From NCBI GenBank assembly GCA_049642065.1, contig JBAROK010000027.1, positions 14,398-78,397 on the forward strand: a stretch of 64,000 nt of DNA, read 5' to 3'. This document shows, piece by piece, positions 24,309-56,139 of the stretch. The notes below the pieces were generated by a model. It worked only from the letters and a program-made list of their open reading frames with translations, was not told the DNA's origin and ran no database searches. The stretch is from Candidatus Omnitrophota bacterium (GTDB lineage: Bacteria > Omnitrophota > Gorgyraeia > Tantalellales > Tantalellaceae). The translations under genes and the position numbers were made by a program. Each line of letters opens with the position of its first letter. Positions within the stretch are counted from its first letter, which is position 1.

Positions 24309-25727
24309 ATGGAAAAATACTTACCAAAAATAAACAGATCGCCCGTTATTGAAAAGGTTAAACTGACCTCTTCGATAGAATCAGTGTTCGGTTGTTTCTC
24401 GGAACTAGCCGATGCAGCCTTTCTGAACAGTTCGTTAGAAACAGATGCGGGCAGGTATTCTTTCATAGGCATAGATCCCTTTCTTACATTGCGGGGCAAA
24501 GGGAAAGAACTCCAGATGAACTTTAACGGTCATACTTTTCTCTCTAAAGAAGACCCTTTTAAATGTCTTGAATCTATCATTAGAACATACAAGGTAGATA
24601 ACCCTACTTCCCTGCCCTTTATCTCCGGCGGGATCGGGTACCTTTCCTATGACCTTAAGGATGCTATAGAAACCCTTCCGCAAAAAGCAAAAGACGACCT
24701 AAAGTTGCCCGATATTTACTTCGCGTTCTACAGAACGCTCTTTATCCACGATAAAAAGGATCCCGGACATCTATATATATCGATCACTACTGATGGTTCC
24801 GATACTTCACGCTCTATCAGTGAATATAAAAAGATCATAGAGAATATACCTGAAGTGCATAACGCTTTTGAAACGCCTGAATCCTATACTCCCGAACTCC
24901 GGCCGGAAATATCTAAAACGGATTACATGGATTCTGTAAAAAAAGTCCTGGATTATATACGTGCCGGCGATATTTACCAGGTATGCCTGTCACAACGGTT
25001 TCGAGCTGGATGGCCTTTTGCCCCCTACGAGCTATATCGCAAACTTAATGATATCAACCCGGCGCCCTTTAGCGCTTATTTAAATTTTAATGACGGTAAA
25101 ATCATCTCTTCATCGCCTGAAAGATTCCTTCATGTGGCAGATAACATTATTGAAACTCGGCCGATGAAAGGTACGCGACCCAGAAGCGCAGAAGCCGATA
25201 AAGATGCCGCACTGAAGGAACAGCTGCGAACAAGCATTAAGGACGACGCGGAATTATCAATGATAGTGGACCTTGAAAGAAACGATCTGGGCAAGGTTTC
25301 AGTTCCCGGTTCTGTAGAGGTCGTGGAACATAGAAGACTGGAGACCTACCCCACCGTATTCCAGACCATATCCATAGTCAAAGGAACCATCGAAAGAGAT
25401 ACCAGTATGATCGATGTCATCAAAGCGTCCTTCCCGGGCGGTTCTATTACCGGATGCCCCAAAATACGCGCTATGAAAATAATAGACGAACTTGAACCGA
25501 CCACAAGAAGCGCGTATACCGGATCCATAGGATACCTTAGCTTTCATGAGACAATGGACCTCAATATAGCTATACGCACAATGATCATCAAAGAAAATGA
25601 CGTTTATTTCCAGGTAGGTGGCGGTATAGTGGCTGATTCAGATCCCTCGGAAGAATACGAAGAAACTATTCATAAAGCACGTGCGATGATGGAGAGTCTT
25701 AAAGCTTGCGAGATGAGACTTGTTTAG
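24309..25727 (+). CDS. pabB: Aminodeoxychorismate synthase component I (chorismate-binding enzyme; could alternatively be TrpE)
   Basis: Chorismate-binding domain with PGGSITGCPK and SAYTGSIGY motifs. It is translationally coupled to pabA, there are no other trp genes nearby, and folC is present in the window. Confidence 0.7.
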   Translation: MEKYLPKINRSPVIEKVKLTSSIESVFGCFSELADAAFLNSSLETDAGRYSFIGIDPFLTLRGKGKELQMNFNGHTFLSKEDPFKCLESIIRTYKVDNPTSLPFISGGIGYLSYDLKDAIETLPQKAKDDLKLPDIYFAFYRTLFIHDKKDPGHLYISITTDGSDTSRSISEYKKIIENIPEVHNAFETPESYTPELRPEISKTDYMDSVKKVLDYIRAGDIYQVCLSQRFRAGWPFAPYELYRKLNDINPAPFSAYLNFNDGKIISSSPERFLHVADNIIETRPMKGTRPRSAEADKDAALKEQLRTSIKDDAELSMIVDLERNDLGKVSVPGSVEVVEHRRLETYPTVFQTISIVKGTIERDTSMIDVIKASFPGGSITGCPKIRAMKIIDELEPTTRSAYTGSIGYLSFHETMDLNIAIRTMIIKENDVYFQVGGGIVADSDPSEEYEETIHKARAMMESLKACEMRLV

Positions 25728-28700
25728 GCTCTGGCCAGCATGGTTCTTATGCTGTCCATAAGTTCTCTGAGTTCATTTTTGTCGAATTCTGTTGCGTTAG
25801 GTATGAGTCTTATTACCATTAGGCCCTTATCTTTGCCGAAAAGCATAGCGTAATCCTCAGCGGAAAGATCGGCACTAGAGACAACGTTCGGTATCATCTG
25901 GTAATGTTTCTTCAGGGTTGCCTCGTCCCAGTTAAGATACTTACCAACAGCAAAAAGCATTATTTCCAAAAGCGGCAGGTATGCAGATCCGGAAAACTCG
26001 TTATCGTCTACAGCAGCTATTGTAGCCTGCCCTTCAAGACCTTGATAATACTTGGTATTCTCACTTCTTGTTATTACGATGAGGTTCTCCGGGGCGACTT
26101 TACCTTTTGAGGGATCGGTGATATTTGCTACACGGCGGGCAAGTGTGCCTCCTTCACCTTTGATTATCTCAAGGTTCTTGAAAAACCTCTCAAGATCGTC
26201 ATTATTACCTTCGATCGTAGGCAGAACCTTTATGAGTTTTCTTAAAAGGGCATTGATCTCCCCTTCTCCGAGTTCAAGGTCAAGAGCAAGAACTACTTTA
26301 CCGTTTTTCTTCGAAGCAGCTATCAGGGCGTTCACTAAACAAGGGATCGCTTTCCCGGCGTTTGCCAATATTTTCGCGGCTTCTTCCGGCTCTTCCCCGG
26401 TTTGTATCTTCTTCTTGGTAATTGCGGCATTATCAGCGGAACTCTGGTCAAGTGTCTTTGGGGTATTTACCGGTACTTTGAAACCTTCTGAATCGATATA
26501 TTTGATAGGTATGGTTATTTCTTCTTGCGGTTTTTTCTTTTCGCTGTCGTCTTCCCCTATCGCAGCAGCAGCGTATTTGGTTTCTTCGGAATAGTTAGGA
26601 TTGCTAGTTTTCATGCTGTCAATAGCCTCTTTATTGACGTTCTCGTGACGCAACATTCCAAATGCATAGAATATCACCGAGAAAAGGAATACGGCTATGA
26701 CCAGAGCGGTCGTAGGCCATTCCGCACATACCATATGGTTCAATCCGTTACCAAAAACTGTCACAACGATATAGTTGAATATGCTGACCTCTAAAGGAGC
26801 TTTGAATGCGTACCGGAGTTTTCCCCATATCCCTATTTCTTTAGGTGCATCCTTTATGTTAGGTATATGCATTGCAACGAATAGACTGTATACAGCACCC
26901 ATGGTGATCATAACCCATCCTATACCCATTACCCCGGCGGCCATAAGAGATGATAAGATACCAAAAGGTATAAGCGTAAATACACGTTCTTCTGCTCTTG
27001 GGGCCGTTTCCAGCGCATACATCCAGAAAGGAGTATCTGGATCTACCAGTTTCTTCATGAGCTTTAAAGCTCCAGGAGCTTCGGGACCAAAAGTATAGGG
27101 AGCACGGCCCGGTAAAATCGGCGCATTCTTAAGGACTTCCTTATTAATGTTTTCGTGACGTATCTGCGCAAACGCATAGGCTATGACAGTTAAGAAGAAC
27201 ACTGCCGCCACTAAAGCTTCTCCCGGCCATTGTGTCCGGGCTCCGTGTCCTAGAGTACTGCTAAAAACAGAAGTCACTATAAAATTGAACGCTACAATAG
27301 AGAACGGCGCCTTGAAAGCATATATAAGTTTTTCCCATAACCCTGATCCTTCCGGAGCTTTCCAGATATTTAGTGTGTGAAGTACCACAAATAGCGTGTA
27401 TACCGCGGCCATACCTATTATGGCCCAGGTTACCCCTATTGTCCCGGTAGCTATCAGTGTTGCAAATATTACGAACGGTGCGAGGGTAAATACGCGTTCT
27501 TCCACTCTTGGGGCTGTATCACGTGCGTATTCCCAGAAAGAACTGTCCGGATCCACTATTCTCTTGATAAAGTACAGCGCGGCTGAACCTTCTTTTCCGC
27601 CAGTGCTCTTCTTTTCGTCATGCTTGTCGCCTTTAATCGTCTTTTTCTGTCCTGCCTTCCAGAGAAGTTCCTGCGTCAGTTTCCGTCTGAGCTTGTTTAT
27701 CTCTTCAAACCTTTTTCTGTCTTCATGCGTTAACTCTTTTACGCCCAGCATCTCTTCCGGAAGTATTTCCTCTATGGGCTTACGCGCCTTCATCTCTTCT
27801 TCTCTTAGATGAAGCGAGATCCTGTATTTCTCAACAGCGGAGTCCCATTTCTTTATGTAATGTTCAACGATACCGTACGCAAGGTAATATTCCTTTACCT
27901 TGCAGTCCCCTTCCGGGAGAAGTTCTATGGCTTTTGCGAACGCTTCTTCAGCGGAGGAGTAATGATGCCAGAAAAATTCCGCACGACCAAGAGCATAATA
28001 ATCAGAAGCTTCAACGCTTCCGCTCATTTCCTTGCTGTTAACATCATCCCTGATGATCAAAAGTATCAGATATTGCCTTACCTTTAAGAAAGTTGTCGGG
28101 GCTATATCGCAGTATTCCGAGATAAGTTCGTTTACTGCGAGCATCTCTTTCCTGCTCTCTTCGCCGGTGGAACGGGATGCTACTCTCTGTGAAACTTCCT
28201 GAGCTATTTCCTGGAGAGCCTTTGCAAGTTCCTCATATTCTTCATCAACCCAGTTCTTAAGCTTCTTTACCTCCAGCTGCAAGCTGAAACCCCATTCTAA
28301 TTCCTTTAGGATACTGAATACTATGGGACGCAATTCTTCTTTCACCTTAGAAATATCTCCGGTATGGTCGCTGGCATCCAGTCTGAAGATAGCGTCTAGA
28401 ACGTTACGCGTATCCAGTCTAGCTTCGGGCTTGGCTTTTTCATCATCCCCATCTTTCTTTTTGCCATCTTCATCTTTACTCTTGTCGGCTTCCTTTTGGA
28501 AGCCAAACATGAGTTTGATTATCTTCATTATGTACTGCAAAAGATCAAAAGAGATATGTACTGCTCTATAAGCATATTTCATGGCTTTTATAGCGTCTTC
28601 ACGTTTTTGAGGATCGTCAAGGTCATCTTCCGCCTTAGCTCCTTTTTCTTCTTTACCCTCCGTTTTGCTTTTTTGGGCTTGCGGAACGCCGCGAGTCTGC

Positions 28701-30760
28701 ATCTTAGCATGTTTTCTGTATATTACAAGTCTGGCGATAATTATAAGAGCTAATGAAAGCCCGAACCACGGTATAGGCAGGAACATCGACAGCGCAACAG
28801 AGACCGCTACTGCAACTCCTATAGTAAACAAAAAGTTTTTCCAGCCACTCCAGTGTTTGATAAGAAGTACAGCAAAAAGCGTAATAGGCAGTACCATGGC
28901 TATACCCACGGTAACAATATTAACAGGAAGCACGAGATAGAATATTCCGGATAAGGCTAGAGCGGCCCCAAAAGTGAAAAATATGGATTTCCAGTTAATA
29001 AGGCGCAGCTTTTCACGCAATGATAATTTGTATCTTATCGGTGCTTCTTTCTTATCCTTTATCTTTTCCTCCGGCCTGGCGGTGTCTGATCTTTCTGGCG
29101 CTTCTATTCTATCTTCATCTTTCTGGGAAGCAAAGACAGGCTCTTTTACTATGTCTATTATCCCGTACAGTTTATCAATAACGGCCCTGATATGCTCATC
29201 CTCTTTAAGTAAGCCCGCGCCGGAATTCTGGTTCATAAAAGTTTCATGCTTTTTAAGTAATTCTCGGATAACTTCTTTTAGCTTCTCCATCTCCTGCGGC
29301 GGAAAATTGCTATCGAGGTCTTTTTTACCGATTATTTTCTCAGCCTTACTCCATATCATTTCCATCTCCCATATCCAGCTGAGCCTGGCAAACACAAACT
29401 GGTATTCTTCCTGCAAAGCACGTAAAGTTTTCATAGCGCTTTTGCGTCCGCCCGGGACAAGGCGCGATTGCTTGAGCGTATATTGCCTTCTTATCCATTC
29501 AAAATATTGTTTGTACAGCGTGAAAAAATGTGATGCTTGCTGCGGGCCGTCTTTCTCCATAAAATCCCGCTGCTTGAATTCGTCTAATTTCTCTTCGACC
29601 TTCATGCTATCGGTAACCTCTTCCGAGAAAGAAGCACATTTATCCCATATGACCTTTTTCAGCACCAGTGACAGTTCACCATCCCTGTGACCAGGTTCTC
29701 TGTCACCTTCCATGGCCTCATAGTTCTCCGGAAACAGCTTAGCTTGTATGGCTCTTGACCTTTCGTGCCCGAAATACGGACAGATCATTTCGTGGAGCAG
29801 ATACTCATGCAATAAAGATTCATCCCTTTCAACAGAGTCAAGCACTTGTGCGGAAAGACCTATCGTACCCGGATACCTTTCGCCTAATTTCATGAATACA
29901 GTATCCGTTAATCCTCCCCTGCGAGTTAATCCGGTCAAGGGTTTTCCAGACTGTGCCATAGTATTGAATCCCAGAAGCCAGCTGCGCGCCATAGTTGGAT
30001 TTTCTTCATCAAGCAAAACTACCGAATTAAACTCCAGCAAGTCACAGGAAGAAGAGTTTTCTATCGCCGCTTGCAGTTTTGATCTCGTCCATTCATCTAT
30101 CTTTGATTTTTCTATTTTCCTTGATAACCTTTTCTGTATACCCGGCATACGAATCCTGACCGAGCTTCTTACCTTTTCCGGAGGCGTGGGATCATTTACA
30201 AGCGCTTCATAGAGTTTAACGGCATCATCCTGATTCGCTACTCTTGATACAAACCCGCGATCAGCCGGACGTCTCAGCACTACCTGCCGGTGTAAGTATT
30301 CGCCTATTTCTTTATTTTCAAGCACCTCACAAGAAAAACCCGGATCGTTGGATCCGGGTATTTTAGGATTATAATATCTTATTCTGCAGGGGCCGAAATC
30401 AATAATGACCTCGCCAGAAGCTTCTGACCCTGCTACTTCAGGCCATTGCCTCAAGAAGCCTGCCGGTATTTCATGAGTGCTTTTTACCTGCTCAAGGGCT
30501 TCCGCTGCGCAGCCTTTCATGCTGAACAGGTTTCTGTTATCTGGATCTTCTTCGAATGTAGCAAGTGAATCTGTAAGATATCGGGTAAGTGAGTGCAAAA
30601 AACTATCGTCTTGTTTAGCGGGATCAAAAAAGGTTTGAGGCTGAAGATGTGTTCTATGAACCATATCAGGATTAGCCCATACTACACCCTGCCAGACCAA
30701 CAAGATGCTCAACATAAAGGCTACTAATTTTATGGATTTTCTCTTAGATAATTCCCACAT
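25724..30760 (-). CDS. Giant secreted/membrane protein (1678 aa), paralogue of the 41730-45611 gene. Modules: signal peptide with a conserved N-terminal module, a 4-TM block, a TPR-like segment, a tandemly duplicated ~140-aa 4-TM module, and a conserved C-terminal ~190-aa module.
   Basis: The N-terminal 150 aa and C-terminal 190 aa align residue by residue with the 1293-aa protein (for example WQGVVWA.PD, ESDPDNRNLF, GPCxIRYYN; and LALDLE(L/I)GEGEIN...IRTMLARA). The TPR-like sequence is SDYYALGRAEFFWHHYSSAEEAFAKAIELLPE. Confidence 0.7.
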   Translation of the reverse strand: MWELSKRKSIKLVAFMLSILLVWQGVVWANPDMVHRTHLQPQTFFDPAKQDDSFLHSLTRYLTDSLATFEEDPDNRNLFSMKGCAAEALEQVKSTHEIPAGFLRQWPEVAGSEASGEVIIDFGPCRIRYYNPKIPGSNDPGFSCEVLENKEIGEYLHRQVVLRRPADRGFVSRVANQDDAVKLYEALVNDPTPPEKVRSSVRIRMPGIQKRLSRKIEKSKIDEWTRSKLQAAIENSSSCDLLEFNSVVLLDEENPTMARSWLLGFNTMAQSGKPLTGLTRRGGLTDTVFMKLGERYPGTIGLSAQVLDSVERDESLLHEYLLHEMICPYFGHERSRAIQAKLFPENYEAMEGDREPGHRDGELSLVLKKVIWDKCASFSEEVTDSMKVEEKLDEFKQRDFMEKDGPQQASHFFTLYKQYFEWIRRQYTLKQSRLVPGGRKSAMKTLRALQEEYQFVFARLSWIWEMEMIWSKAEKIIGKKDLDSNFPPQEMEKLKEVIRELLKKHETFMNQNSGAGLLKEDEHIRAVIDKLYGIIDIVKEPVFASQKDEDRIEAPERSDTARPEEKIKDKKEAPIRYKLSLREKLRLINWKSIFFTFGAALALSGIFYLVLPVNIVTVGIAMVLPITLFAVLLIKHWSGWKNFLFTIGVAVAVSVALSMFLPIPWFGLSLALIIIARLVIYRKHAKMQTRGVPQAQKSKTEGKEEKGAKAEDDLDDPQKREDAIKAMKYAYRAVHISFDLLQYIMKIIKLMFGFQKEADKSKDEDGKKKDGDDEKAKPEARLDTRNVLDAIFRLDASDHTGDISKVKEELRPIVFSILKELEWGFSLQLEVKKLKNWVDEEYEELAKALQEIAQEVSQRVASRSTGEESRKEMLAVNELISEYCDIAPTTFLKVRQYLILLIIRDDVNSKEMSGSVEASDYYALGRAEFFWHHYSSAEEAFAKAIELLPEGDCKVKEYYLAYGIVEHYIKKWDSAVEKYRISLHLREEEMKARKPIEEILPEEMLGVKELTHEDRKRFEEINKLRRKLTQELLWKAGQKKTIKGDKHDEKKSTGGKEGSAALYFIKRIVDPDSSFWEYARDTAPRVEERVFTLAPFVIFATLIATGTIGVTWAIIGMAAVYTLFVVLHTLNIWKAPEGSGLWEKLIYAFKAPFSIVAFNFIVTSVFSSTLGHGARTQWPGEALVAAVFFLTVIAYAFAQIRHENINKEVLKNAPILPGRAPYTFGPEAPGALKLMKKLVDPDTPFWMYALETAPRAEERVFTLIPFGILSSLMAAGVMGIGWVMITMGAVYSLFVAMHIPNIKDAPKEIGIWGKLRYAFKAPLEVSIFNYIVVTVFGNGLNHMVCAEWPTTALVIAVFLFSVIFYAFGMLRHENVNKEAIDSMKTSNPNYSEETKYAAAAIGEDDSEKKKPQEEITIPIKYIDSEGFKVPVNTPKTLDQSSADNAAITKKKIQTGEEPEEAAKILANAGKAIPCLVNALIAASKKNGKVVLALDLELGEGEINALLRKLIKVLPTIEGNNDDLERFFKNLEIIKGEGGTLARRVANITDPSKGKVAPENLIVITRSENTKYYQGLEGQATIAAVDDNEFSGSAYLPLLEIMLFAVGKYLNWDEATLKKHYQMIPNVVSSADLSAEDYAMLFGKDKGLMVIRLIPNATEFDKNELRELMDSIRTMLARA
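26627..27565 (-). repeat. Intragenic tandem duplication encoding two ~140-aa multi-TM modules inside the 1678-aa gene
   Basis: Module 1 (aa ~1066-1207) reads IKRIVDPDSSFWEYARDTAPRVEERVFTLAPF...RHENINKEV. Module 2 (aa ~1236-1378) reads MKKLVDPDTPFWMYALETAPRAEERVFTLIPF...RHENVNKEA. Matching motifs appear in the same order in both, and the ends align (RHENINKEV / RHENVNKEA). Confidence 0.6.
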
Positions 30761-31016
30761 ATCTACACAAATACACCTACCCCTCGTCGGCTTTTTTTAG
30801 CTTTAACAAAGTGGCTGTATTACACTTTTTGATTTCTTAACTTAAGCTGTCATGAAAGATAATAACATTAAATATAAGTATAATCAACCCTTATATCTAG
30901 CTTTTTTGATTTTAACGACGTGGGCTTAGAGTTTTGCGGATAATTACGGAGGTATAATTGGATGAATTATTGCTATAAGTGAACTAAAAGAAAAGATTTA
31001 CATCATATATAAAAAT

Positions 31017-31046
31017 ATAGGGGTAGATATATTAGTCTACCCCTAT
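31017..31046 (-). terminator. Hairpin terminator immediately downstream of the 3486-aa gene stop
   Basis: ATAGGGGTAGA-tatattag-TCTACCCCTAT. An 11-bp perfect stem located 29 nt after the stop, followed on the minus strand by a T/A-rich tract. Confidence 0.5.
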
Positions 31047-31074: not shown

Positions 31075-34000
31075 TTACAGCGATACTGCTACCGCTTCCT
31101 GCATCATCTGCCAGTCACGGATCTCTTCGTAATCCACTGCCCGTATCTTTAGGAATAATCTATCAAGTAAAGTATTCAAGTCGTTCACTCCAGCTAACTG
31201 CTCCGCTATCTCTGCGCCTGATATCCGCGTCAAAAGATCCTTGATGTAATCAAGTCCCATGCGTTTGGCATCAGGATTAGTAGAATTCAAGCAAAAAGCT
31301 ATCTGTCTTGCCAATACAAAACGGACTGCTATGTCCGGGGGCCTCATCCCACCAGTCTCGGGATTAATCCCATCCGTGTAAGCGTCTTTAACGAATGTGA
31401 TCCGTTCTTTATCCCTGTATTCTTTAAACTCATCGGTCGTATCTACAGTATCCACCATCTCCAGCCCTTTCATCTGAGGCGTATAAGAAACTATCCTTCC
31501 GCCTTCAGGGAGTGTCCGATTAGCGTTATCAAGAGCCTTCTTGTATTCTTTAGCTGTAGCTTGCATGTTTCCAGGCATGATCTTGAATGTTATTATCTGC
31601 TGGTTATCCGGCTTAATACCGAACTTGGCCTTCACTTCTGAATTCATGTCACGTACACCTCTTTCAACGGTCTGGAAAGCGGCATGGTCTTCAAGATTAT
31701 ACACAACTCCTACTACTATCCTTACAGGATCACTTCTTCTTTCTATTTCTTCACCAGCTGCTACTGCGACCACTTGGCGAGCTTCTACATTATCACCTAT
31801 AGCAGCTCCTTCCGGTGCTCCGGCAACTATCTCCGCCGCCTCGCCCGGAGTTACAGCAGCTTCTGTAAGCAGAGCCAGTTGATATTCTTTTGCTTTCATG
31901 TTAATAAAATTCCTTAACTTATTCTTGAGCGTATTCCTGCCAAAGATCTTACCCTGGATAGAATTCTCCCTGTCAGTTTTTCCGTATATCTCCCCATGAC
32001 TGTAATCCATTTCGTACATTTCGTGAAAGATAAACTCGGCAAGTTCAATTGGATCAAGTGTTTCTACAAGTTCAGCCGATAGCCCTATTTTACCGGTCAC
32101 TTCAGGCGCAAGGAGAGCATCATCTCCCATACTGAACCCAAGAAGATAATTCTCTTCGCCTTCAACTTTCGTATTAAAAAGATACATATTATCTATAATG
32201 CTTGATCTTAACTCCCCCTTATCTTCATCGCTCATGTCAACCGTCCCTACCATATTCTGTACCATCGTCATTATTCCAGGATCGTCATCCGGCAGGCCGC
32301 CGCTTCTCATCTTATCGAACAATTTATCGAATGCCGAATCTATTTTGTTCCTGAGCGATTTATTCATAGCGACCTGATCCCCGACAAGGCTTTTAAGATC
32401 ATCCATTGTGCGAACGTTATCCATGAATTCGCCTAAAGCCCCATTACTCACCAAGGCAGGTTTAATAGCACGTACAGCAGTACGTGCAGCGGCTGGACTA
32501 AGATTGTCCCGTAATCTTGCTATTTCTCCTTCGAGTTCAGAAATAGCCTTTGCTACTGGATCTACATATCCGACAGTGTATTTCGTGTACGGTTGTTCGC
32601 GTTCTCTCAAGAGAACAAGATGCGCTTTTAGTATTCTGACATCCATCGCCGTATACTGCTTCTCTTTACCCTTCTTTAGCGCCGTCATCCTTTCCGTTTT
32701 GGTAGCATCAGGTCCCGTAGCAATATTTAAATATTCACGCAGCATTTTCAATATCTCATCTTTATCGGTGACAAGATCCACAAGAGGTTTCGCAAGCACC
32801 GTCTCTTGATGCCCATACTGAGTGAGATCTACGATTCTCTCTCTCACAGCATTCAGTACCCGCTTGCCGTTATCGACGGCATCTTTATTTATGCCACCCA
32901 GTTCAGCAGTAGGATCTTGTATCCCGGCGTCCGCCATAGCCATTTTAATGGTCTTCTTTCCAGCCACAGTTTTTCTGAATTTGTCGTATTCTTGCATTGC
33001 GGTCTTATCTACATGCTCTTCCAGTTTACTCTGCCAATCTTTTGGCATGCCGAACTGGCCTTTCTTTAACTGAGCGTCCATCTGCTGTTCCGTAAGCTGT
33101 ATAGCCCTAAGCACCAGCGGAAGATTAGAATTAAGAAAATCAAGACCTTCGCCCCTATAGACCTGGAATCCATATCCTCCATCCGCTTCGCTCTTTTCAA
33201 GGTCACCAAGTATTGTTACAACTTGGTCTGGCGTCATCTTTAGAACGGTACGGTCCACTCTTGCCATATCACTATTCAAAAAGGAAAATACCTGTGGGGT
33301 ATTGGTGGCCACGTTCACTGCCATCCGCCTTAATGTCGTAACCCCCATATTGTTCTTAAGTGTCTTATACCCGTATCGCTCGCTCTTCATCTCATCCAGA
33401 ATTTCAGACTCCTGTTCCTCATTAAGACCCCATCTTTCAAGTCTCGTTTGTTCCATCTTTAATGCACCATGCGCTGTATTTATTGCATCAGCGTTTTCTG
33501 GCGCAGCCGCCAGCCGGGCATCCTTTATTATTTCTAACGCTTCCTCTATAGTCCCCGCTTTCTTAAAAGCCATTTCTAACAGCGTAGTCTTCGATGAGGT
33601 AAGCGTAAGATAATCCGTCTTAAGCCCATATTTATCTACAATCTCTTTCCTCTCCTCTATAGTTGCCGGATTGCTTATCATGAGATTCACGGGTGCTTTA
33701 TCACTATAGATATCTACACCCCAGTTCACGAGCCTATCTATAAACACCTTTAATGCTTCAAAGCCTGCTTCACCTTGATAGCCACTAAAAGGTTTTATAT
33801 CACGGCCCGTCAATGACTGGACCGCCTCTTCTGTAGAAGTAGACCCAATAATAAAAGCTCTTTTTCTTGCGGCTCTCATTTGGAGTTCATCACTGGTTTT
33901 TGTAAGCATATCCAACCCGGTACCGGTGGTAAATATATCGTAACCAAGCGCTCTGTCGGTTAGCCGCGCGCGCGTTTTAAGCTCATCTAGCTCCACAGCC

Positions 34001-37000
34001 ATAAGTTGTTTGCCCAGAGTTGACTCTGGCTCTACCTGAAGAGCCTTGAGAATAGTTCCAACATCCTTAGCATTCTGTATATGGTCTCGCCTTAAATCAT
34101 CGAACTGGCTTATCCTTTCCTGCACATCAAAATACTGTTTTTCCAAATCTGAAGCGTCTTCTCTAACTCCAAGCATATCCAGAGCGCTCTTCTCCCTGAG
34201 CACTGCGTTCTTCAATACTATATCTGCCGGAATAGGCATTGTCCTGCTTAGCCCGTCTCGGTTCAATTCTCCACCTTCTTCTATAGCAATCTGGACAACA
34301 TTACTTGATGCATCAAGCATCCTGCGCGCACGGGCAGCTTCATCAAAATATTCTTTCTTCCGATTTTCTACTTCGCTTCTAAGGTCGCGCACAAATTCAT
34401 CTTCTTTACTCGTATAATTCATAAGGTCTTTTTTCATGTCTGTAGTAGTAGCTTGATCCCTGTGTGCTGCGTCGGTTATCCTGCTTCTAACGTTTTCTAC
34501 ACTATTAGTACCGGTAAAATACTGATGTGCTTCATTTAACTTACCCATATCCCCGGTTTCCTTATAATTATCAAAAGCGCCTTTAGCGCTATCAAACATT
34601 TGCTGCATGATCGCCATATCTACCATATGAAGAAGCACCGGGTTATCAAAATCTATCATTTCAGGCCTGTCTGCGGCCATATTTATTAAAGCATCTTGAA
34701 TAGGTTTAGCGTATGGAGCATCGGACTCTTTTTGAGCCAGTTCCTGTGACCGCATCCTCTCATAAAGCACACGCGCCCCTTCGGTTAATTGCGCATATTC
34801 CTCATCCAAAAGCGTCTCTATAGGAAGGGTATACCTTCTGTATGCTGCCCAGTTCTCCGCTGCAAGGTCATTTTCTATCAAAGATCCAGCGAATTCTTCT
34901 GCAAACTTTATCAATGCTATTTCCGCATTGGCCTTCTCAATCTCGTACTGAAATCTGGAAATTTTATCAGTACCCAGAAAATCTGAAGCGGGAAAACGCG
35001 AGAGATAAATAAGTCCTTTTGTTCTTGCCTGCTGAAAAGTACCACGATCTGCCATTATCAAACGACCGTATACATGATCCTTGCCTAATGCTTTATCCAT
35101 CCAGTAATATAATCCCAGCACCCTGAACAACCTATCCTGTAATATCGGAGAAGCCGCTTTGGCCTCCGCGAGCATATCTGCTACCATCGTAAGCCATGCT
35201 CTCTCTTTGTCGGCAGTTCGCATCCTCGCCAGGGTTCCCTCTATTTGGACTTTTAATTTTCTGGCCCGTTCCGCCATGACCATGTCTAGCACTCTTTCAA
35301 ATACTTTTTTGGATTTTGCCAACACGATGGGCTTGCGCCATGGCTGAAACTTTAAATTTCCCCATTGTCCGTACCATGGACCTGGCGCTTTCTCGTTTCC
35401 CTCTAAGGCCCACGCCAGTCTATCTACACGGCGTACCACATCTCTATGTCTCTGGTAGACATCTTCTACGGCCTTGTCTGCCGCATCCAGATTCTTTATG
35501 GTATCAATGTCCGCCCCCAGAAACTCCATTTGTCCCGCTGTGTTTCTGTATCTATTTCCTGCTATATCAGATAGTTGTCGTTCAAGATATTCCAGCTCAC
35601 CGTCATTCATCTCCTCTAATGATCTTACTCTTTTTAAGTTACTGCGCGCGGTCGCGGGGCTTTCTGTCGCAATAGCGTTAATAACTGACTTTGCGGCTTC
35701 AACTTCTTCTGGTGTGGCAGGTGGCAATTTGTTTACGGCTATTGCATAGGAATACGCTTCTCCCAGCGTGATAGTGGGTCTTGCTGGAACAATCTCGGGT
35801 TCAAGTAGCCCTTCTTCTCGAGCCGCGGCACGTTTAAGTTCATTCACCTGATCCAGCGATATAACATCCGTAAATCTGCTCACAACTTCTACCGGACCAC
35901 CCAAATTATCCGAAAGATCCTTCATTTCATGATCACTAAGCCCAAAATATAATTTAACGACGTCCAATATATCTTTGTCGCTCTGATATGCACCCATCAA
36001 AGCGAACGTTTCTCTTCGAGCCCTTATCAAAGAATTTACCAGGCCTGCAACATTATTGGCCTGCCGCGTGTTAACCTGAATAGGCTCGACTATTTCCATG
36101 ACAAGCCCTTCTCTTGTTATTTTATCGCCAGCTTTTACTGTGTCTGATTTTTTGCCGTAAGGTTCGGCTGTTATTTTCCTTATATGTTTATCCGCAAGTT
36201 CATCCCCGAACAATGCTTTATATTCCGCGTCCGAATAACCTCTTTCCTGCACTACTGTCATTGTGACATCAGTTATTTTTTCGCCATCCGTTGCTAGGTC
36301 GAACCTGGTTGATTCACCGCGGAATGCTCCGGCATTATATGCGGCTATGCTCATTCCCGCTGTCATGATGTTAAGATCGTTGATAACAGTATATTTATAT
36401 GTGTCTGCTTCGGTTTGTGTTATCTCTTCTATTTGCGCGGCCCTATCGATATTCTCTATCATCTGGTCCCTTATACCTTCAATAAGCTTAGCGTAAAGTC
36501 CTTTGTTGAGCTTACCTCCTATCGTACATAATTCCGATAATTCGTGAAGTTTGCCGAGCAGACCATTGTTAGCAGTTACCCTGGTAAAAGCGTCCATGAA
36601 TTTCTCGGCCGCTGCTGTGTTGTCAGCTATTTCTGTCATCGTCATGACCGCCTGTTCTGGATTAGAAAAATCTATATCCTGGTAATCATGGTATGCGATA
36701 TTATTGACTATTCTTGACTTACCATCCGCTCCAAACAATCCTCTCACGAGGGGATCCAGTGTATCCGAGTCCAGGTATTTTGTAGCTGCCGCTCCATGTC
36801 CCGCTTTTAAATCATCCACATCACCGAATATCCCCAATCCAGCATTAGCATTCCTTATGTTACCGGCCATAGTGTCATGCATCATAAGAGCTACCCTGGA
36901 TTCGAGTAAAAGCTCTGGTGTAATGAACCTGGAATTATATTCATCCTGACTGATCTTACCATCCCTCCGCGCCATCGCTAATGCCCCGTTATAGTTTGCG

Positions 37001-40000
37001 GCCATAGCCTCAACCTTATCTGAATTTATAATAGCGTGTATAGCGCCGTTTGATCCCCTCAATCTGTTACCTCCGGATCCATACGCCATTTTTACTTTAA
37101 CAGGATTGCCTTTTTCATCCAGTTTCACGTCCCCTGCCTCATCGGTTACCGTAACCTCTGCTACTCCTCCCTTCTGAGCAACATATGTATTTAATGAAAA
37201 ACTCAATAGATCAACGAACTGGCGCGCATCCGTTTCCTCAAGTGCCTTGGGATTATTAGATTCCCGGTCCCACATACGGCTCTGGAGATAAAGATCTATC
37301 ATTCTCTCAAGTGAGGCTTTAATTATATCCCCTTCGTCATTTATCGAACGATCATACCGCAAGAGTCCTCTTGTATTATATATATTCAGGATCCCGTCGA
37401 TCGTCGTAGATAATGCGTTTTTAAAGGATTCTAAGTTTCGTTTTCTCTCTGATTCGCGATCTAAAACTTCTCTGTCTCGCCTCACTGCTTCAGCCACGGC
37501 TCTATCAAATCCTATAGTGAACATTCCCAGTTTTCCCTGCAGGTCTTCCAGTTCGTTACTATTAGTCATCTGTACGTTGACAAGCGAATTTAATGTTTTG
37601 AAATCCAATTTGCCTGTTTCTGCCCCAACTCGTAAAAGAGTCGCATCAGTTATCTTGCCTGCATCCACGCTAAAAGATACTAATTCTTTCTCTTCATCCA
37701 TAAGATCTTTAAGGATCGGGATTACAGACTTGCGGTAAGATGCCCCCAATGTATCCATCATCTCATCGAAGGTCGCTGTACCCTTGTTCATAAGGTCTTC
37801 TACCTTAGCAATACCCCTGTCTCTCGCTTGCCTATCTCTATCATCTCTTATTTTTATCTTTTTGGCGGCGGCCAGAGCTTCAACAAGCAAGTCACTTAGA
37901 TCCCTGCCCGTTGGCACCTTGTTAACACTCACTATTCCCGCGTCTATAAGATCTTTAAGCGCGCTGGCCTGATCTCGCCCTATAGGACCTACCACATCGT
38001 ATCTTGCTCCAATATCCACACGCTGTTTCTTCTCCTCGCGATCGCCTACAACTTCATCAACCGCAGCAAAAAACTTATCCCGAAGATCTCGTCTCCCTTC
38101 AAAAACCCTGTTAAGCGTCTCTTCTGACATAACCATTACCCGCATGGGAGAATCCGCTACCACGTCGGCATTTCTTCTTGTCTTGTGTATCAAGGCTATC
38201 TCTCCAATAAGCTGGCCGCGACCATTGTCCGTGCTAAAAACCGTTTTTGTGCCGGCTTCACCTATGAGCGGATAATCCACTCTATACCCTCCCGAAAGAA
38301 CAAAATACGCAGATCTGTCATTAGGATCTCCTGCGTTTATAAAAGTTTCTCCTTCCTGAAAATATGTAACTCCAAGATTATTCTTCATGCTTTCAATTAA
38401 TTTAGTTTGGTCTTCTTCGGATAGTGCTGCAAAAAAATCATGCAGATCGGTACCTTCTACCATGAAAGCGCTGCGAATTATCTCAGCGCTGCCTGCGGTG
38501 CTCATTGCGCCTACACGTGGCCCTTCCTTAGCGAACAATAATCGTGCCTGCTCCGGGCTCAGTTTCTGATTACGCATCATCATTTGAGCAGCCTCAGTTA
38601 TATTCTGAGCTATGTCAGTTTTACCCGACAAGAGATTCCTTCTTACCCTTTGAAACGCTATTGCAAGGTTGGACGCTTGCGCGGGATCTAATTGTCCCGC
38701 TAGTACAGCCAGTACAGCGCTATTTCCCGCAAGTTCCGCAGTAAACTCAGCATTATTGAGCCTGGTAATTATATAATTCCTTAAAGCCTGATCTGCATCC
38801 GAGAAGAAATCCCCTATATCACTAAACCTTTCCGCTTTCCCAAATCCAAGTGCTTCTAACTCATCACGCAACTGTTCATAAAATACTAGAAGGCTCGTAA
38901 GGTTTTCGACAACTTTACTCGTTTTCTCCCCTTTATCTATGTTACCCAGCAAAGCACCCCTAAAACCGTTCTGTGCAAAAGTAATCGGCGAATAATTAGT
39001 GGGACCAAGCATGAAATTATTGAGAAGTTGACATGTGTGTCTGGCACCTCGCCCTAAGTCATCTATACTCTTCTTGTCCGTTCGCTCAGCGCCCAGGTTA
39101 ATATTTCTTACCATTCTTTCTATGGTTTCATTCATTTTGTTTACAAGAACACCCGCTTCCGGACTGGCGGGGGCAGTATAATCCCTATCCACCTCAAGTC
39201 TTTGAGCCTCGGTCATTCCCCAAACCGCCGCGGTAACGACTTCCCCGACATCATTTCTCTTTTTCAGTGGAGTTTTACCTTCAAGAAGCTTATCTCGCCT
39301 GTTGTTACGTTTATAAGCTTCTTCTACCTCTTTGGACAGAAAATGGTCACCATAGATACCTCCCACTATCTCGTGTAGTATTGTGGCACGACCCTCTTTT
39401 GTGATCTTACCGTCCGGACCAATGAATTTAGCGTTTATACGTATACCATACCCTCCCGGCGTGCCGTCGAAATCTACACCTTCAACAGTACGTACAAGAG
39501 ATTCGTCTGTAATGAAACTCTTCCCTGTAAGACCTTTTACTATTGTTGACACATCGTCATCAGGCGGCACACCCATAGCTTCCATAAACGGAAGAAGGTC
39601 GTTATTTATGATTTCATCGATCTCAGGGATATCCTGGAAAGCGTCAGGGTTTTCTTCGTTTAATTTTTCCATTTGAGCGTCTGTTTCACGCTCATGCACC
39701 TTGTGCAGGAGTGCCCTTATCGGCTCTACCGTAACGGGGCCCGTCTTCCAGCGGATAACGATAGAATCGCCTTTTTTCTCTATCGCATCCACTGCATTTC
39801 CTTCTGGTATCGCTTTCTGGTTTTCCGCAACGATCAATACGGCCGCCTTGAAAGCATCTATACTCCTTCGGTCCCAAACATCCTCCCCTAAAGAAGAAAG
39901 ATAACTGGCTATTTGTATCAGAGACGCCGGTGCCAGCATCTCATACATGATTTCGTACATCCCGAACCTTTTCCCTTCCAATAAATCAAAATACGGACAT

Positions 40001-47653: not shown

Positions 47654-48118
47654 TTACCCTTTCAATTGTCTCTTTTTCTCATTAAGGATCGTTTTTAATT
47701 CTTCGATCGTCTTAAGAGTTTCAACACCTTCTATATCCCATGTCCCGAACCCGTATACCGGTATCCTGGCATTTAAAGCGAAGCCTATTTCTGACAGCGT
47801 ACCGTATTTACCGGGAAGTGCTACCACCATATCCGGAGTCCCGGCCACCAACGTGTTCCTAGAATACCCCATACCTGTCGCAATAGCAATATCAACGTAC
47901 GCGTTCGCAGCCTCTTTATCTTCTCCAGGGATTATCCCAACAGTAAGACCATTGGATTTTTTAGCGCCCCTGCAAGCAGCTTCCATTATACCGGCCAACC
48001 CTCCGCAAATCAGAACAGCACCTTCTTCGGCTACTACAGAACCTATATCTTCAGCCAGTTTAGCGGCACTATCATCGCATTCATGCCCACCTATAACAGA
48101 AACCAGAAATTTCCTCAT
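47654..48118 (-). CDS. TIGR00725 / SLOG (LOG-like Rossmann) family protein
   Basis: SVIGGHEC...LICGGLAGIMEAACRGA...GIIPG pattern. Confidence 0.6.
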   Translation of the reverse strand: MRKFLVSVIGGHECDDSAAKLAEDIGSVVAEEGAVLICGGLAGIMEAACRGAKKSNGLTVGIIPGEDKEAANAYVDIAIATGMGYSRNTLVAGTPDMVVALPGKYGTLSEIGFALNARIPVYGFGTWDIEGVETLKTIEELKTILNEKKRQLKG

Positions 48119-48134
48119 TCTTATAGCTCCCTTT

Positions 48135-48941
48135 TTATATGCCGTTTTTCCTTAAAAAGTTGTCCACCCCTGCTATGAATTCTGCTTCGTAATCGAACAC
48201 AGCTTCATTATGCCCTCCACGCATAGCATGGAATTCTTTAGGTTGAGCAGCGTTCTCAAAAAGCTTTTCTCCATGTGTAAAGGGAACGATCTCATCTTCT
48301 GTGCTATGAATTATAAGTTTCGGGATGTGTATACTATCGACCTTTGAATAAGCGTCAAATTCCTGGGTAATGAACAGTTTTGCAGGCAAAAAAGGATATA
48401 TCTCTTTAGCCATATCTCGAGTAGAAGTAAAAGCACTGTTTGTGATCAAAAGCTTCGGTTCGGTATTTGAGGCAAGATCTACCGCCACCGCCCCACCGAT
48501 AGACTGACCATATACAATAATCGCATTTTTATCTATATCTTCTCGGTTTATAAGATAATTATAAGCCCCACCAGCATCGAGATACATCCCCTTCTCCGAA
48601 GGCCGCCCATGGCTTTTGCCATAACCACGGTAATCAAATATGAACACGTTCAGTCCCATATCGTGGAATATCCTGATAATATGCAGGCGATGGCTTATAT
48701 TTCCAGCATTTCCATGACATATCAGTATTGTACCTCTTGCTGATCCGCTAGCTGGAATAAACCAGGCGTTCAAATCGGTTCCGTCCGATGCCTTAAAAGT
48801 AACGTCCTCGTAAACCAACCCTATCGAATCCGGTGTAGCATCAATATGCCTGGACGGGAAAAATATATTGTTTTTTTCAAACCATCTCAAATAAAGAAAA
48901 AGTAACGCGATTATCGCAATGATAATAATTATGTAATTCAT
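48135..48941 (-). CDS. Alpha/beta-hydrolase (membrane-anchored) with GxSxG nucleophile elbow
   Basis: N-terminal TM helix (MNYIIIIIAIIALLFLYL) and the GQSIGG motif. The start was set at the internal ATG so that the gene does not overlap the OsmC gene. Confidence 0.7.
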   Translation of the reverse strand: MNYIIIIIAIIALLFLYLRWFEKNNIFFPSRHIDATPDSIGLVYEDVTFKASDGTDLNAWFIPASGSARGTILICHGNAGNISHRLHIIRIFHDMGLNVFIFDYRGYGKSHGRPSEKGMYLDAGGAYNYLINREDIDKNAIIVYGQSIGGAVAVDLASNTEPKLLITNSAFTSTRDMAKEIYPFLPAKLFITQEFDAYSKVDSIHIPKLIIHSTEDEIVPFTHGEKLFENAAQPKEFHAMRGGHNEAVFDYEAEFIAGVDNFLRKNGI

Positions 48942-48996
48942 GGTTTTCCTGATTAATAATTGTATGTTTTCCACCCTTAAATCCAATAGACCGTAT

Positions 48997-53874: not shown

Positions 53875-53887
53875 GTGTTTCCCTTCC

Positions 53888-55864: not shown

Positions 55865-55883
55865 TATTTGTCACTCATGGCTG

Positions 55884-56120
55884 TTAAAGTCCGAGAGCTG
55901 ATGATATCTTATCTTTATCAAAACCAACCACGATCTCGCCTTCAATATCAATAACGGGAACTCCCATCTGTCCGGATTTTTCAACCATCTCCTGGGCTTT
56001 CGCTTGGTCCGTCGAAACATCAATACTCTCGAACTCGATACTATTATCCTGGAGATATTGTTTAGCCTTCATACAGAACGGACAGGTCGGCGTGCTGTAA
56101 ACTACGACTTTTTTGCTCAT
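55884..56120 (-). CDS. Glutaredoxin-like protein (thioredoxin fold, CPFC active site; YruB/NrdH-like)
   Basis: 78 aa with the motif VYSTPTCPFCMKAK. Confidence 0.7.
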   Translation of the reverse strand: MSKKVVVYSTPTCPFCMKAKQYLQDNSIEFESIDVSTDQAKAQEMVEKSGQMGVPVIDIEGEIVVGFDKDKISSALGL

Positions 56121-56139
56121 GCGTTTCTCCTTTTACTGA

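Follow-up and report, generated by a model that had tools for sequence, protein, structure and literature searches.

A 3486-residue protein from an Omnitrophota bacterium (gene G) carries, about 1000 residues from its N-terminus, what is virtually certain to be a cyclic-nucleotide-binding (CNB) domain. The explanation we lean towards is that G is a Sec-exported modular protein of a large Omnitrophota-type family, whose cargo in this case includes a nucleotide-gated switch. The constant parts of the family's proteins are a predicted cleavable signal peptide, an N-module of ~560-760 aa and a C-module of ~240 aa with a conserved C-terminal motif, enclosing a lineage-specific middle that in the ortholog group of G begins with a canonical CNB domain. 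This domain would bind a cyclic mononucleotide (cAMP or cGMP, possibly a cyclic pyrimidine), and binding would shift its C-terminal helices, by analogy with PKA-R, Epac and mycobacterial Pat; the shift would in turn release or activate the adjoining domains (residues ~1200-3200), which are strongly conserved and unrecognisable. By signal-peptide and charge rules the mature protein, with its CNB domain, would lie beyond the cytoplasmic membrane; its site of action would be the periplasm, the cell surface or a host or prey cell with which the bacterium is in contact, rather than the producer's cytoplasm.

The gene and its neighbourhood

Gene G lies in a window of 64 kb, the whole stretch of DNA that was analysed (Table 1). 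A preliminary description had reported a 3486-aa open reading frame with a CAP-family signature at nucleotides 38086-38448; the reading frame is borne out, and those nucleotides, on the minus strand, do encode residues 1030-1150. The strings that it quoted all occur in the protein: HIQDAH spans residues 85-90, VVTGGFHTENL spans 477-487, and FINAGDP, YFVLSGGYRV and GRGQLIGEIALIHKTRRNADVVADSP lie within residues 1065-1130. An identical protein (P0001) is encoded on an 84.7-kb ENA contig, full-length orthologs with 60-63% identity (P0002-P0004) come from three other assemblies, and the gene neighbourhood is the same in the ortholog-bearing assemblies, with synteny kept in three genomes, which together rule out an assembly artefact. 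Conserved synteny and a terminator-like hairpin suggest a real, expressed-looking gene. No internal repeats were found in the 3486-aa protein.

Neighbours U and D resemble each other at both ends, with 40% identity over the first 200 aa and 59% over the last 229, and U matches no Pfam family. Despite similar-looking motifs, homology between the tail of the G family and that of U and D was not demonstrated (hhalign probability 1.7%). No nucleotide cyclase is encoded within the window, and no secretion system adjoins gene G, whose surroundings are housekeeping genes.

Table 1. Features of gene G and its neighbours, in window coordinates.
Feature	Coordinates	Strand	Basis
Gene G, 3486-aa modular protein (signal peptide, N-module, CNB-containing cargo, C-module)	31075..41535	-	ORF list and translation; identical protein P0001, orthologs P0002-P0004
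Predicted Sec-type signal peptide, residues 1-35: n-region RHKMAKK, h-region LMSIFVIFAFFANFVV, c-region TDAWA, cut before I36	41431..41535	-	Manual rules
Family-defining N-module core, residues ~36-590	39766..41430	-	Common to 119/119 homologs; conservation map; AF2 pLDDT 77
N-module extension, residues ~600-800, GGxGIxIN ... HE(I/V)xGxxxGDH motif, in about a third of homologs	39136..39738	-	Coverage histogram, invariant columns, motif listing
CNB domain, residues ~1034-1157 (Pfam match 1058-1146 = nt 38098-38364)	38065..38436	-	PF00027, PDB CNB matches, PADLOC PycTIR CNB portion
Phosphate-binding cassette GEIALIHKTRRNADVVA, residues 1111-1127, including Glu1112 and Arg1121	38155..38205	-	Alignment to GELALIYGTPRAATV of PKA RI-alpha
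Most conserved cargo part, residues ~1400-1800, 67-81% identity among orthologs, candidate output domain	36136..37338	-	Sliding identity
Small conserved domain YLLGF...IGLSAxL...HEx7H...QGKIFG, residues ~3118-3212	31900..32184	-	Also in neighbour D, residues ~270-345
Family-defining C-module, residues ~3230-3486, always at extreme C-terminus	31078..31848	-	34 homolog HSPs end at last residue
C-terminal 25-aa motif LKIRAVDYEEIRDWQMMQEAVAVSL-COOH	31078..31152	-	C-termini of 120 homologs; sole occurrence in window
Terminator-like hairpin, 11-bp stem and T-run, 29 nt past stop codon of G	31017..31046	-	One such hairpin, against 0.4 expected from shuffled sequence
Neighbour D, 1678 aa, signal peptide VVWA|NP, several TM segments	25724..30760	-	Pfam, blastp, synteny
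Neighbour U, 1293 aa, signal peptide VVWA|SP, internal TM segments, paralog of D at both ends	41730..45611	-	Syntenic with G in three genomes

A CNB domain with an intact phosphate-binding cassette

The Pfam family PF00027 (cNMP_binding) matches residues 1058-1146 of the full-length protein over profile positions 3-87 of 89 (E 1.6e-10), its 41.3 bits exceeding the gathering score of 27.5 bits, and the isolated CNB fragment reaches 46.9 bits (E 2.7e-12). A phmmer search of the PDB matched 51 CNB domain chains, with PKA RII-beta at the top (E 8.7e-8), and a profile built from the CNB domains of four orthologs matched CNB-B of PKG I at profile positions 15-130 of 134 (E 8.3e-9). The similarity to PKA-R, PKG and HCN extends along the entire domain and takes in the G-E-x-A-L...R-x-A cassette, an N-terminal helical lead-in and the C-terminal helices. 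The CAP-family signature of the preliminary description is that of a CAP/PKA-type domain.

In the cassette of such domains the Glu contacts the ribose 2'-OH and the Arg the cyclic phosphate. The cassette of G, GEIALIHKTRRNAD, aligns with GELALIYGTPRAAT of RI-alpha, and both residues are present, Glu1112 corresponding to Glu200 and Arg1121 to Arg209. These two residues are invariant in the four orthologs, as is the wider pattern G-E-I-x-L-x-H-x-T-R-R-N-A, and the linker flanking the domain (residues 801-1000) is merely 22-41% identical among them. Purifying selection acts on the cassette, which is intact in G. Characterised CNB domains generally have Ala, Ser or Thr after the cassette Arg and Thr, Ser or Asn at +3; unlike PKA-R, PKG and HCN, G has Asn at the first of these positions and Asp at the second, and its domain lies ~1000 residues into a 3486-aa protein with a signal peptide. 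Judged from the domain's sequence, we consider the binding of a cyclic nucleotide an even bet.

Because the domain is of CAP/PKA type with an intact phosphate-binding cassette, the earlier suggestion that the giant protein is ligand-regulated is a reasonable one. A regulated enzyme, as that suggestion went on to say, can only be inferred, because no output domain is identifiable in the cargo. Searches of the PDB with the whole protein and a six-ortholog profile, of NCBIfam, and of Pfam with six fragments at E<=10, returned the CNB domain alone, and about 2000 further residues of G besides the N- and C-modules have no known match. Residues ~1400-1800 match nothing in Pfam or the PDB; part of this region, residues 1500-1800, has an HD-like look that those domain searches did not bear out. 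The small conserved domain is an invariant block in the orthologs and is shared with neighbour D (blastp of G against D, E 0.001; D against P0075, E 1e-24). The two regions of G that carry an HE motif did not prove homologous to each other (hhalign probability <1%).

Within the family the CNB domain is confined to one ortholog group (4 of 200 sampled members). A homolog search started from the CNB fragment by itself gave no match, not even to the parent protein, which the database contains. A metagenome scan with the single sequence found no CNB orthologs, and one with the ortholog alignment returned a single match, unrelated, at 36% identity. The preliminary description called the placement unusual, which is fair for bacteria, but the NCBI and JGI pipelines already name orthologs of G cyclic-nucleotide-binding proteins. 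The domain alone is ordinary and known to annotation pipelines; it is the setting that is notable.

Two constant ends and a large family

The membership of G in the family defined by signal peptide, N-module and C-module is close to certain: the N-module follows directly on the signal peptide and the C-module motif stands at the C-terminal end. Residues 1-~550 are common to 119 of 119 homologs, and the last ~240 are common to 34, ending exactly at the C-terminus. Members combine a signal peptide, an N-module of ~560-760 aa, variable cargo and a C-module of ~240 aa. In a representative library, 8857 clusters at 50% identity match the N-module at E<=1e-3, a number that falls to 5275 when E<=1e-30 is required, and the N-module of these matches always starts 30-90 residues from the N-terminus. 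Species-representative genomes hold 432 family loci, and all 80 of the loci listed belong to Omnitrophota or "uncultured Planctomycetia" MAGs. Copies occur several per genome, often in tandem, and are expanded in small genomes such as the 1.43-Mb chromosome CP070780.1.

The core of the N-module is an alpha/beta unit with the invariant motifs HxQDAHCN (85-92), NLEGG (116-120) and TGGFH (479-483), interrupted by a helical insert of ~290 aa (173-464). It was in this region that the preliminary description had suspected a TraB/GumN/Tiki-like hydrolase. The TIKI/TraB group is defined by paired GxxH motifs together with a conserved acidic residue. The N-module is like TIKI, TraB, GumN and ChaN in its alpha/beta core, in the His motif HIQDAH that ends an early strand, in the late GGFH and in the variable insert between them; the second motif, T-G-G-F-H, is invariant and fits GxxH, and the first, H-x-Q-D-A-H, differs from it. 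It is unlike them in giving no significant profile, PDB-sequence or Foldseek match. Pfam on the whole of G returned no TraB or Tiki-family match at E<=1; among 12 N-module homologs there was one sub-threshold match to PF04187 (ChaN/Tiki superfamily; E 0.052); 22 cores from which the 290-aa insert had been deleted gave no TraB/Tiki match at E<=5; N-module profiles matched no PDB sequence; and Foldseek of the AF2 model (pLDDT 77) against the PDB found nothing at E<=0.001. These results lend no support to the identification (PF01963, PF04187 and relatives), and of the original suggestion the resemblance of GGFH to GxxH is all that remains.

For the C-module, AF2 gives a four-stranded parallel alpha/beta domain with a helical tail (pLDDT 76, pTM 0.76). 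Foldseek found nothing for it at E<=0.001, the best match being PTS EIIA-Man (probability 0.84, E 0.076), and the modelled domain is treated here as resembling a generic flavodoxin-like alpha/beta fold. About 100 of 120 homologs carry the C-terminal motif, for which the consensus is L[RK]I[RK]P[IV]D[YF]xEIxDWxxAQxAVxxSL.

Elsewhere in the family the cargo includes Pkinase, HATPase_c, Metallophos, PPDK/PEP-utilizers, M48 with ABC1, SpoIIE, GNAT, radical SAM and TPR/HEAT domains. The paralog kinases keep HxDxKxxN and DFG, and several have no TM segment between signal peptide and kinase; kinases need ATP. As judged from these searches the family is very large and undescribed, and its N- and C-modules are without recognised relatives. 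No mention of the two modules, or of cNMP_binding, was found in West-Roberts et al. 2023 (doi 10.1101/2023.11.21.568195) or Nielsen & Lui 2026 (doi 10.64898/2026.06.07.730766).

On which side of the membrane?

Signal peptides were judged by hand on three features, namely a positive n-region, an h-region of 7-17 aa and small residues at -3/-1. At the N-terminus of G the n-region is positive (KK), the h-region is 16 aa long and an AXA site follows (DAWA|IE), in keeping by these manual rules with a Sec (SPase I) signal peptide. The N-terminal hydrophobic segment noted earlier does exist; it spans residues 18-36 (Kyte-Doolittle 2.04), and the protein has no other. There is no further TM segment, and a cryptic one after the N-core was rejected (median KD 1.09, Hessa sum +7.8). 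Across the family, a hydrophobic core is found in 181 of 187 N-termini and an AXA-like site in 145, the mean net charge being +3.3 in the n-region and -1.6 in the 20 residues after the core.

The CNB domain is predicted to lie outside the cytoplasm because the Sec-type signal peptide is the only hydrophobic segment and no second TM segment follows; from these signal-peptide and charge rules we think it probable, with some reserve, that the bulk of G lies beyond the cytoplasmic membrane. The hand rules run against the membrane-anchored, cytoplasmically oriented protein of the preliminary description, and the predicted position of the CNB domain is the one that it had itself named as counting against its proposal. 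The charges of paralogs with TM hairpins favour that proposal: their short loops are poor in K and R and their outer flanks are net positive in 72 versus 19 pairs, which by the positive-inside rule would place the big soluble domains in the cytoplasm, opposite to the signal-peptide reading. TM-parity topology of the paralogs favours neither side. Domains that bind cNMPs are normally cytoplasmic sensors, and an exported one would have no obvious supply of ligand, because cyclic nucleotides are cytoplasmic messengers. The lack of a nucleotide cyclase in the 64-kb window and the ATP-requiring kinases of the paralogs likewise speak against export.

Competing explanations

Were the bulk of G cytoplasmic and the protein held by an N-terminal membrane anchor, it might be a cAMP/cGMP-regulated enzyme with a TraB/GumN/Tiki-like N-terminal hydrolase, an idea that draws on the intact CNB domain, the typically cytoplasm-type, cofactor-dependent cargo of the family, the net positive hairpin flanks of paralogs, the weak PF04187 match in one of 12 homologs and the likeness of GGFH to GxxH. 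We regard it as unlikely, given that the family charges, short h-region and conserved AXA site predict an N-in/C-out orientation or cleavage, that no second TM segment returns the chain to the cytoplasm, and that Pfam, spliced-core Pfam, PDB profile and Foldseek searches all lack a significant TraB/Tiki/ChaN match. The CNB fold might instead serve another ligand, either a cyclic pyrimidine of the sort that Pycsar effectors bind or a non-nucleotide like those of some CRP/FNR proteins, or be a ligand-free protein-protein module in a structural or periplasmic protein. The match to the CNB portion of PycTIR in PADLOC (E 3.1e-8), the unusual Asn and Asp of the cassette, the predicted extracytoplasmic location and the lack of a cyclase in the window are consistent with this; the strictly conserved Glu and Arg are the signature of cyclic-phosphate binding, the top PDB matches are cAMP/cGMP binders, and neither a TIR/TM effector nor a PycC-like cyclase accompanies the domain, so this too seems improbable to us.

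A further alternative is that the family would consist of secreted multi-domain effectors delivered to host or prey, with the N- and C-modules serving secretion, anchoring or translocation. A signal peptide joined to cargo that is sensible only where ATP, SAM or cNMP is present, constant ends around a swappable middle and big paralog expansions in small genomes (CP070780.1) would all suit such a role, and dependence on a host or a predatory life has been inferred for Omnitrophota (Seymour et al. 2023, PMC10066038). Against it stand the housekeeping context of gene G, with no secretion system beside it, the failure of Foldseek to reveal a translocation domain in either module and the membrane-resident look of hairpin-bearing paralogs. 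We consider such a role quite unlikely, and the same low credence goes to the notion, modelled on host-factor-activated toxins, that the CNB domain senses the cyclic nucleotide of the target cell as an activation cue. It would be a long shot, too, to propose that the thousands of proteins with signal peptide, N-module and C-module form an unrecognised exported cargo-swapping effector system, in which the constant ends would mediate export and delivery, the cargo would act in host or prey and G would be switched on by its victim's cyclic nucleotide.

Relation to known systems and significance

In mycobacterial Pat and similar bacterial CNB-enzyme fusions the domain is likewise fused in cis as an allosteric switch, and NCBIfam NF058543 matches the CNB part of G at E 8e-4, far below its cut-off; Pat, however, is a small cytoplasmic two-domain enzyme, whereas G has an export signal and no recognisable GNAT or catalytic domain. 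The Pycsar effectors PycTIR and PycTM, which bind cCMP/cUMP, share with G only the CNB portion of PycTIR; G lacks a TIR or TM effector, an adjacent pyrimidine cyclase and a defence-island context, and its membership among these effectors was rejected, as was membership in any defence system, PADLOC yielding domain-level matches only. MARTX toxins are exported proteins of several kaa in which conserved N- and C-terminal regions enclose a variable effector array whose activity a small molecule from the target cell switches; they are exported by type I secretion, with no Sec signal, and carry glycine-rich repeats and a cysteine protease domain. The likeness to G is architectural only, an analogy, since type I secretion, glycine-rich repeats and cysteine protease are absent from G.

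With the giant and long proteins of the same phylum G shares a signal peptide and/or TM segments, a patchwork of signalling and metabolic Pfam domains set in long unannotated stretches, and cytoplasm-type domains predicted outside the cell, as West-Roberts et al. 2023 also noted. Giants of the Archaeovorin/dockerin type have at least 30,000 aa, numerous TM regions and a divergent SecA DEAD domain or dockerins (West-Roberts et al. 2023), and G, with 3486 aa, one hydrophobic segment and no such Pfam match, was rejected as one of them. The long proteins catalogued by Nielsen & Lui 2026 (at least 10 kaa) mostly bear a signal peptide and/or TM segments, 9-13% having a signal peptide only, and contain signalling or metabolic Pfams. 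At 3.5 kaa G falls below the cut-offs of those studies; it has a signal peptide only and is without SecA-DEAD, C39, dockerin or TSP3 domains.

What is notable in G is the setting, a cytoplasmic second-messenger sensor behind an export signal in one branch of a family of >8000 clusters. If the export prediction is true, these nanobacteria put nucleotide sensors, kinases and ATPases beyond the cytoplasm, a placement directly relevant to the ways in which host-dependent or predatory Omnitrophota affect other cells. If it is false, the signal peptides and topologies predicted for long proteins of Omnitrophota would be systematically misleading, and current interpretations lean on them. Either way, a CNB-bearing protein of 3.5 kaa is small enough for tractable experiments on the family.

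A Cyclic-Nucleotide-Binding Domain Deep within a Giant Protein

The gene for the giant modular protein G is a 10,461-nt open reading frame encoding 3486 amino acids, and the strings quoted from it in the preliminary description, which placed a cyclic-nucleotide-binding (CNB) domain at residues 1030–1150, are all present. That claim is borne out by Pfam, PDB and ortholog-profile matches. PF00027 (cNMP_binding) is the sole significant Pfam-A family in the whole protein, covering residues 1058–1146 and profile positions 3–87 of 89 (E 1.6e-10; 41.3 bits, above the gathering score of 27.5), and the excised CNB fragment reaches 46.9 bits. A phmmer search of PDB sequences matched 51 CNB domain chains (PKA RI/RII, PKG, HCN; best E 8.7e-8), and a four-ortholog profile matched CNB-B of PKG I at E 8.3e-9 over profile positions 15–130 of 134. 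The match is thus confirmed as lying far beyond chance.

Residues 1111–1124 of G, GEIALIHKTRRNAD, align with GELALIYGTPRAAT of PKA RI-alpha, an alignment that puts Glu1112 and Arg1121 at the positions that contact the ribose 2′-OH and the cyclic phosphate in characterised domains such as PKA-R. The PF00027 alignment and cassette residues were checked: this Glu and Arg are invariant among orthologs, the pattern G-E-I-x-L-x-H-x-T-R-R-N-A is unchanged in four of four, and identity in the upstream linker (residues 801–1000) is only 22–41%. G thus carries a canonical CNB domain in which the residues that contact the ligand are conserved. The Toxoplasma protein PCR12 (PDB 9ya0_MA; 2736 aa) has a CNB domain at residues 1763–1852, so there is eukaryotic precedent for such a domain deep within a very long protein.

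Constant Ends and a Variable Middle

Homology searches with G returned a protein of identical sequence, encoded on an 84.7-kb ENA contig, three full-length orthologs that are 60–63% identical to it, each with PF00027 (JGI calls one a “CRP-like cAMP-binding protein”, and NCBI labels another as cyclic-nucleotide-binding), and more than 370 further homologs of 1.9–6 kaa, nearly all from Omnitrophota MAGs, with query coverage of just 13–27%. Mapping of the matched segments explains this pattern: residues 1 to ~550 are common to 119 of 119 homologs and residues 600–800 to about one third, while the middle is common to orthologs only. At the BLAST level the last ~240 residues are matched in 34 homologs, always up to the homolog’s final residue, and the C-terminal motif L[RK]I[RK]P[IV]D[YF]xEIxDWxxAQxAVxxSL-COOH is recognisable in ~100 of 120 proteins. 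Two homologs, P0005 and P0006, match residues 1900–3486 and are without the CNB domain. By its sequence G is therefore a member of a family built as signal peptide, N-module, cargo and C-module.

The family is large. A profile of the N-module, which among matches always starts 30–90 residues from the N-terminus, finds 8857 clusters at E ≤ 1e-3 and 5275 at E ≤ 1e-30, counted as 50%-identity representatives. Scanning a single genome for each GTDB species gave 432 confirmed loci, and the 80 listed are all from Omnitrophota or “uncultured Planctomycetia” MAGs. There are several loci per genome, at least two in a complete 1.43-Mb chromosome, and they are often in tandem, which indicates local paralog expansion. 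Tandem genes on one contig include L005/L057, L007/L059, L018/L047, L022/L071 and L027/L054, in Omnitrophota genomes of ~1–2 Mb. Precomputed Pfam assignments reveal very diverse cargo: Pkinase, ABC1, HATPase_c, Metallophos, PPDK_N/PEP-utilizers, Peptidase_M48, SpoIIE, GNAT, radical SAM, methyltransferases, HD and TPR/HEAT. Since a CNB-domain HMM and a cassette regular expression found only the four orthologs among 200 family sequences, the cNMP domain is a rare cargo.

Neither constant module has a significant relative in Pfam, PDB sequences (by profile), the PDB by Foldseek, or NCBIfam. The N-module (AF2 model; 12-sequence alignment, pLDDT 77) has an alpha/beta core with invariant HxQDAHCN, NLEGG and TGGFH, split by a ~290-residue helical insert and followed by a small separate domain with GGxGIxIN...HEx8H. 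The predicted C-module (28 sequences, pLDDT 76, pTM 0.76) consists of an alpha/beta domain with four parallel strands and, after it, helices; its best Foldseek match, PTS EIIA-Man (probability 0.84), is non-significant at E 0.076. A TraB/GumN/Tiki-like N-terminus had also been suggested. G’s GGFH fits the GxxH motif of that group, and QDAHxN is loosely like its GExH-type first motif. The kinship is unsupported beyond this motif resemblance: G has no TraB/Tiki-family Pfam match at E ≤ 1, PF04187 (ChaN, Tiki superfamily) matched one of 12 homologs at E 0.052, Foldseek with the N-module model was negative against the PDB, and 22 homolog cores from which the insert had been removed in silico, sparing profiles a gap to bridge, gave no TraB, ChaN or Tiki match at E ≤ 5 and none in the PDB.

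Residues ~1160–3230 of the cargo have no recognisable family in profiles against the PDB or in Pfam fragment searches. In the best-conserved stretch the motifs GAIHAI, ALMMHDTMAGN, GHGAAATKY and AYHDY recall HD-type phosphohydrolases, yet profile and PDB searches of it found no match. A small HEx7H domain is common to G, its downstream neighbour D and a few other family members (D against P0075, E 1e-24); it has no Pfam match, hhalign shows no kinship to the HEx8H region at G 694–731, and a role as a minimal metallopeptidase-like or processing motif is conceivable.

Genomic Neighbourhood

Features of the window, with forward-strand coordinates
Feature	Position	Strand	Description
G	31075–41535	-	3486 aa
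CNB domain of G	38086–38448	-	residues 1030–1150
Best-conserved cargo stretch	36136–37338	-	G residues 1400–1800; 67–81% identity among orthologs
HEx7H small domain	31900–32184 (G); ~29720–29950 (D residues 270–345)	-	[YW]LLGF...IGLSAxxL...HEx7H...Q[GA]K[IL]F
U	41730–45611	-	1293 aa; signal peptide VVWA/SP; internal TM segments; no Pfam family
D	25724–30760	-	1678 aa; signal peptide VVWA/NP; internal TM segments; no Pfam family
Block upstream of U-G-D	45794–49058; L001 2492–5767; L002 2606–5774 (other genomes)	- (window)	alpha/beta hydrolase, SLOG/LOG-like, PAP2 phosphatase, B12-binding radical SAM
Terminator-like hairpin	31017–31046	-	11-bp stem and T-run, directly 3′ of G
Promoter-like hexamers	30859–30899		ahead of D
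Oxidative-stress cluster, anaerobe-typical	54941–61346	-	thioredoxin-reductase-like flavoprotein, two rubrerythrins, desulfoferrodoxin, flavodiiron protein (ODP + flavodoxin), ferritin, AhpC/thioredoxin-fold protein, DsbD-like membrane protein
SpoIIE-type phosphatase	16389–17951	-	520 aa; signalling/envelope
Response-regulator receiver	63069–63476	-	stand-alone; signalling/envelope
Peptidoglycan-binding-domain protein	63560–63982	-	small; signalling/envelope
ORFs without Pfam family	2955–3530, 5244–5744, 9390–9842, 13364–14443, 53446–53994 (-)		150–359 aa (E ≤ 1e-4 or 1e-5)
Ogg-like gene	53888–54520		

G is flanked by U and D, whose paralogy is confined to their two ends (40% identity over the N-terminal 200 aa, 59% over the C-terminal 229 aa), with differing middles and a common tail, V[IL]RLIP[DN]A..[FL]...ELR..M..I[RK].MLARA. 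They form a second pair with constant ends and a variable middle, and a homolog search gave three matches only. Their tail looks similar to that of the G family, yet homology is unsupported by hhalign (probability 1.7%). Two other genomes keep the order alpha/beta hydrolase, SLOG/LOG-like, PAP2, B12-radical SAM, U, G, D and then a convergent anthranilate synthase. Given the strong terminator-like hairpin directly after G and the promoter-like hexamers that precede D, these two are probably transcribed separately; the U–G interval yielded no terminator. The SLOG/LOG-like gene matches PF18306 (LDcluster4) and, weakly, the SLOG domains of PADLOC PsyrA/ShosA, and as SLOG domains are nucleotide-related, a functional tie to the CNB domain is conceivable. 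The remainder of the window holds housekeeping and oxidative-stress genes. The start of the ORF at 53446–53994 may be miscalled, as ~100 nt of it overlap the beginning of the Ogg-like gene.

Which Side of the Membrane?

The sole hydrophobic segment of G, residues 18–36 (Kyte-Doolittle 2.04), is preceded by RHKMAKK and followed by TDAWA/IELVPEP, a predicted signal peptide of textbook n/h/c layout, AXA site included, and the protein’s single export-type signal. This pattern characterises the family: among 187 N-complete members, the hydrophobic core is present in 181 and an AXA-like site, often DAWA itself, in 145, and mean net charge is +3.3 in the n-region versus -1.6 in the 20 residues past the core. 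The N-core ends in a conserved semi-hydrophobic stretch that is not TM-like (median KD 1.09; Hessa sum +7.8 kcal/mol). By signal-peptide rules, mature G, including its CNB domain, is therefore predicted to lie on the far side of the cytoplasmic membrane.

The cytoplasmic orientation first proposed is the reverse of this, and a topology that places the domain outside the cell had been named there as refuting the proposal. In favour of the cytoplasmic orientation, paralog kinases have intact catalytic motifs and no TM segment between kinase and signal peptide. Moreover, among 107 pairs of TM hairpins in paralogs (P0019–P0117), loops are often 7 aa and K/R-poor, and 72 pairs versus 19 have net-positive outer flanks, so that the positive-inside rule implies cytoplasmic large soluble domains, in conflict with the signal-peptide-based topology. 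The two lines of evidence conflict; we consider the first-proposed cytoplasmic model unlikely. Published longer Omnitrophota proteins pose the same puzzle: 94% bear signal peptides and/or TM segments, 9–13% signal peptides only, with signalling and metabolic Pfams (Nielsen & Lui, doi 10.64898/2026.06.07.730766), and glycolytic domains were predicted extracellular, “quite possibly” via an overlooked TM (West-Roberts et al., doi 10.1101/2023.11.21.568195).

A Possible Nucleotide-Gated Switch

In PKA-R, Epac and Pat the CNB domain is an allosteric switch, and by analogy that of G would bind a cyclic mononucleotide and, once bound, act on adjoining cargo domains. If G is exported, the site of the switch would be the periplasm, the surface or a contacted cell. 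We hold this composite, an exported G with a cyclic-nucleotide-gated switch on its cargo, to be slightly favoured; its weight overlaps with those of the other readings, which are compatible with one another. A CNB fold serving a ligand other than cAMP/cGMP, or a ligand-free role, seems unlikely, the contact residues being conserved. PADLOC matched PycTIR, a Pycsar effector, at E 3.1e-8, and a cyclic pyrimidine may be the ligand; a Pycsar system itself was ruled out, as the match is limited to the CNB part, with neither a TIR nor a cyclase. Delivery of G into a host, a special case of the export reading, is a rather long shot. The 64-kb window holds neither a secretion system nor a nucleotide cyclase.

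CNB domains, long mosaic Omnitrophota proteins and pipeline labels on the orthologs were already known. Three points are new relative to the literature found: a CNB domain placed behind a predicted export signal, a family delimited by constant N- and C-modules and its C-terminal motif, and that family’s size. That the family forms a system of effectors with swapped cargo, one member of which is gated by a host nucleotide, is doubtful, and if true would be of high interest.
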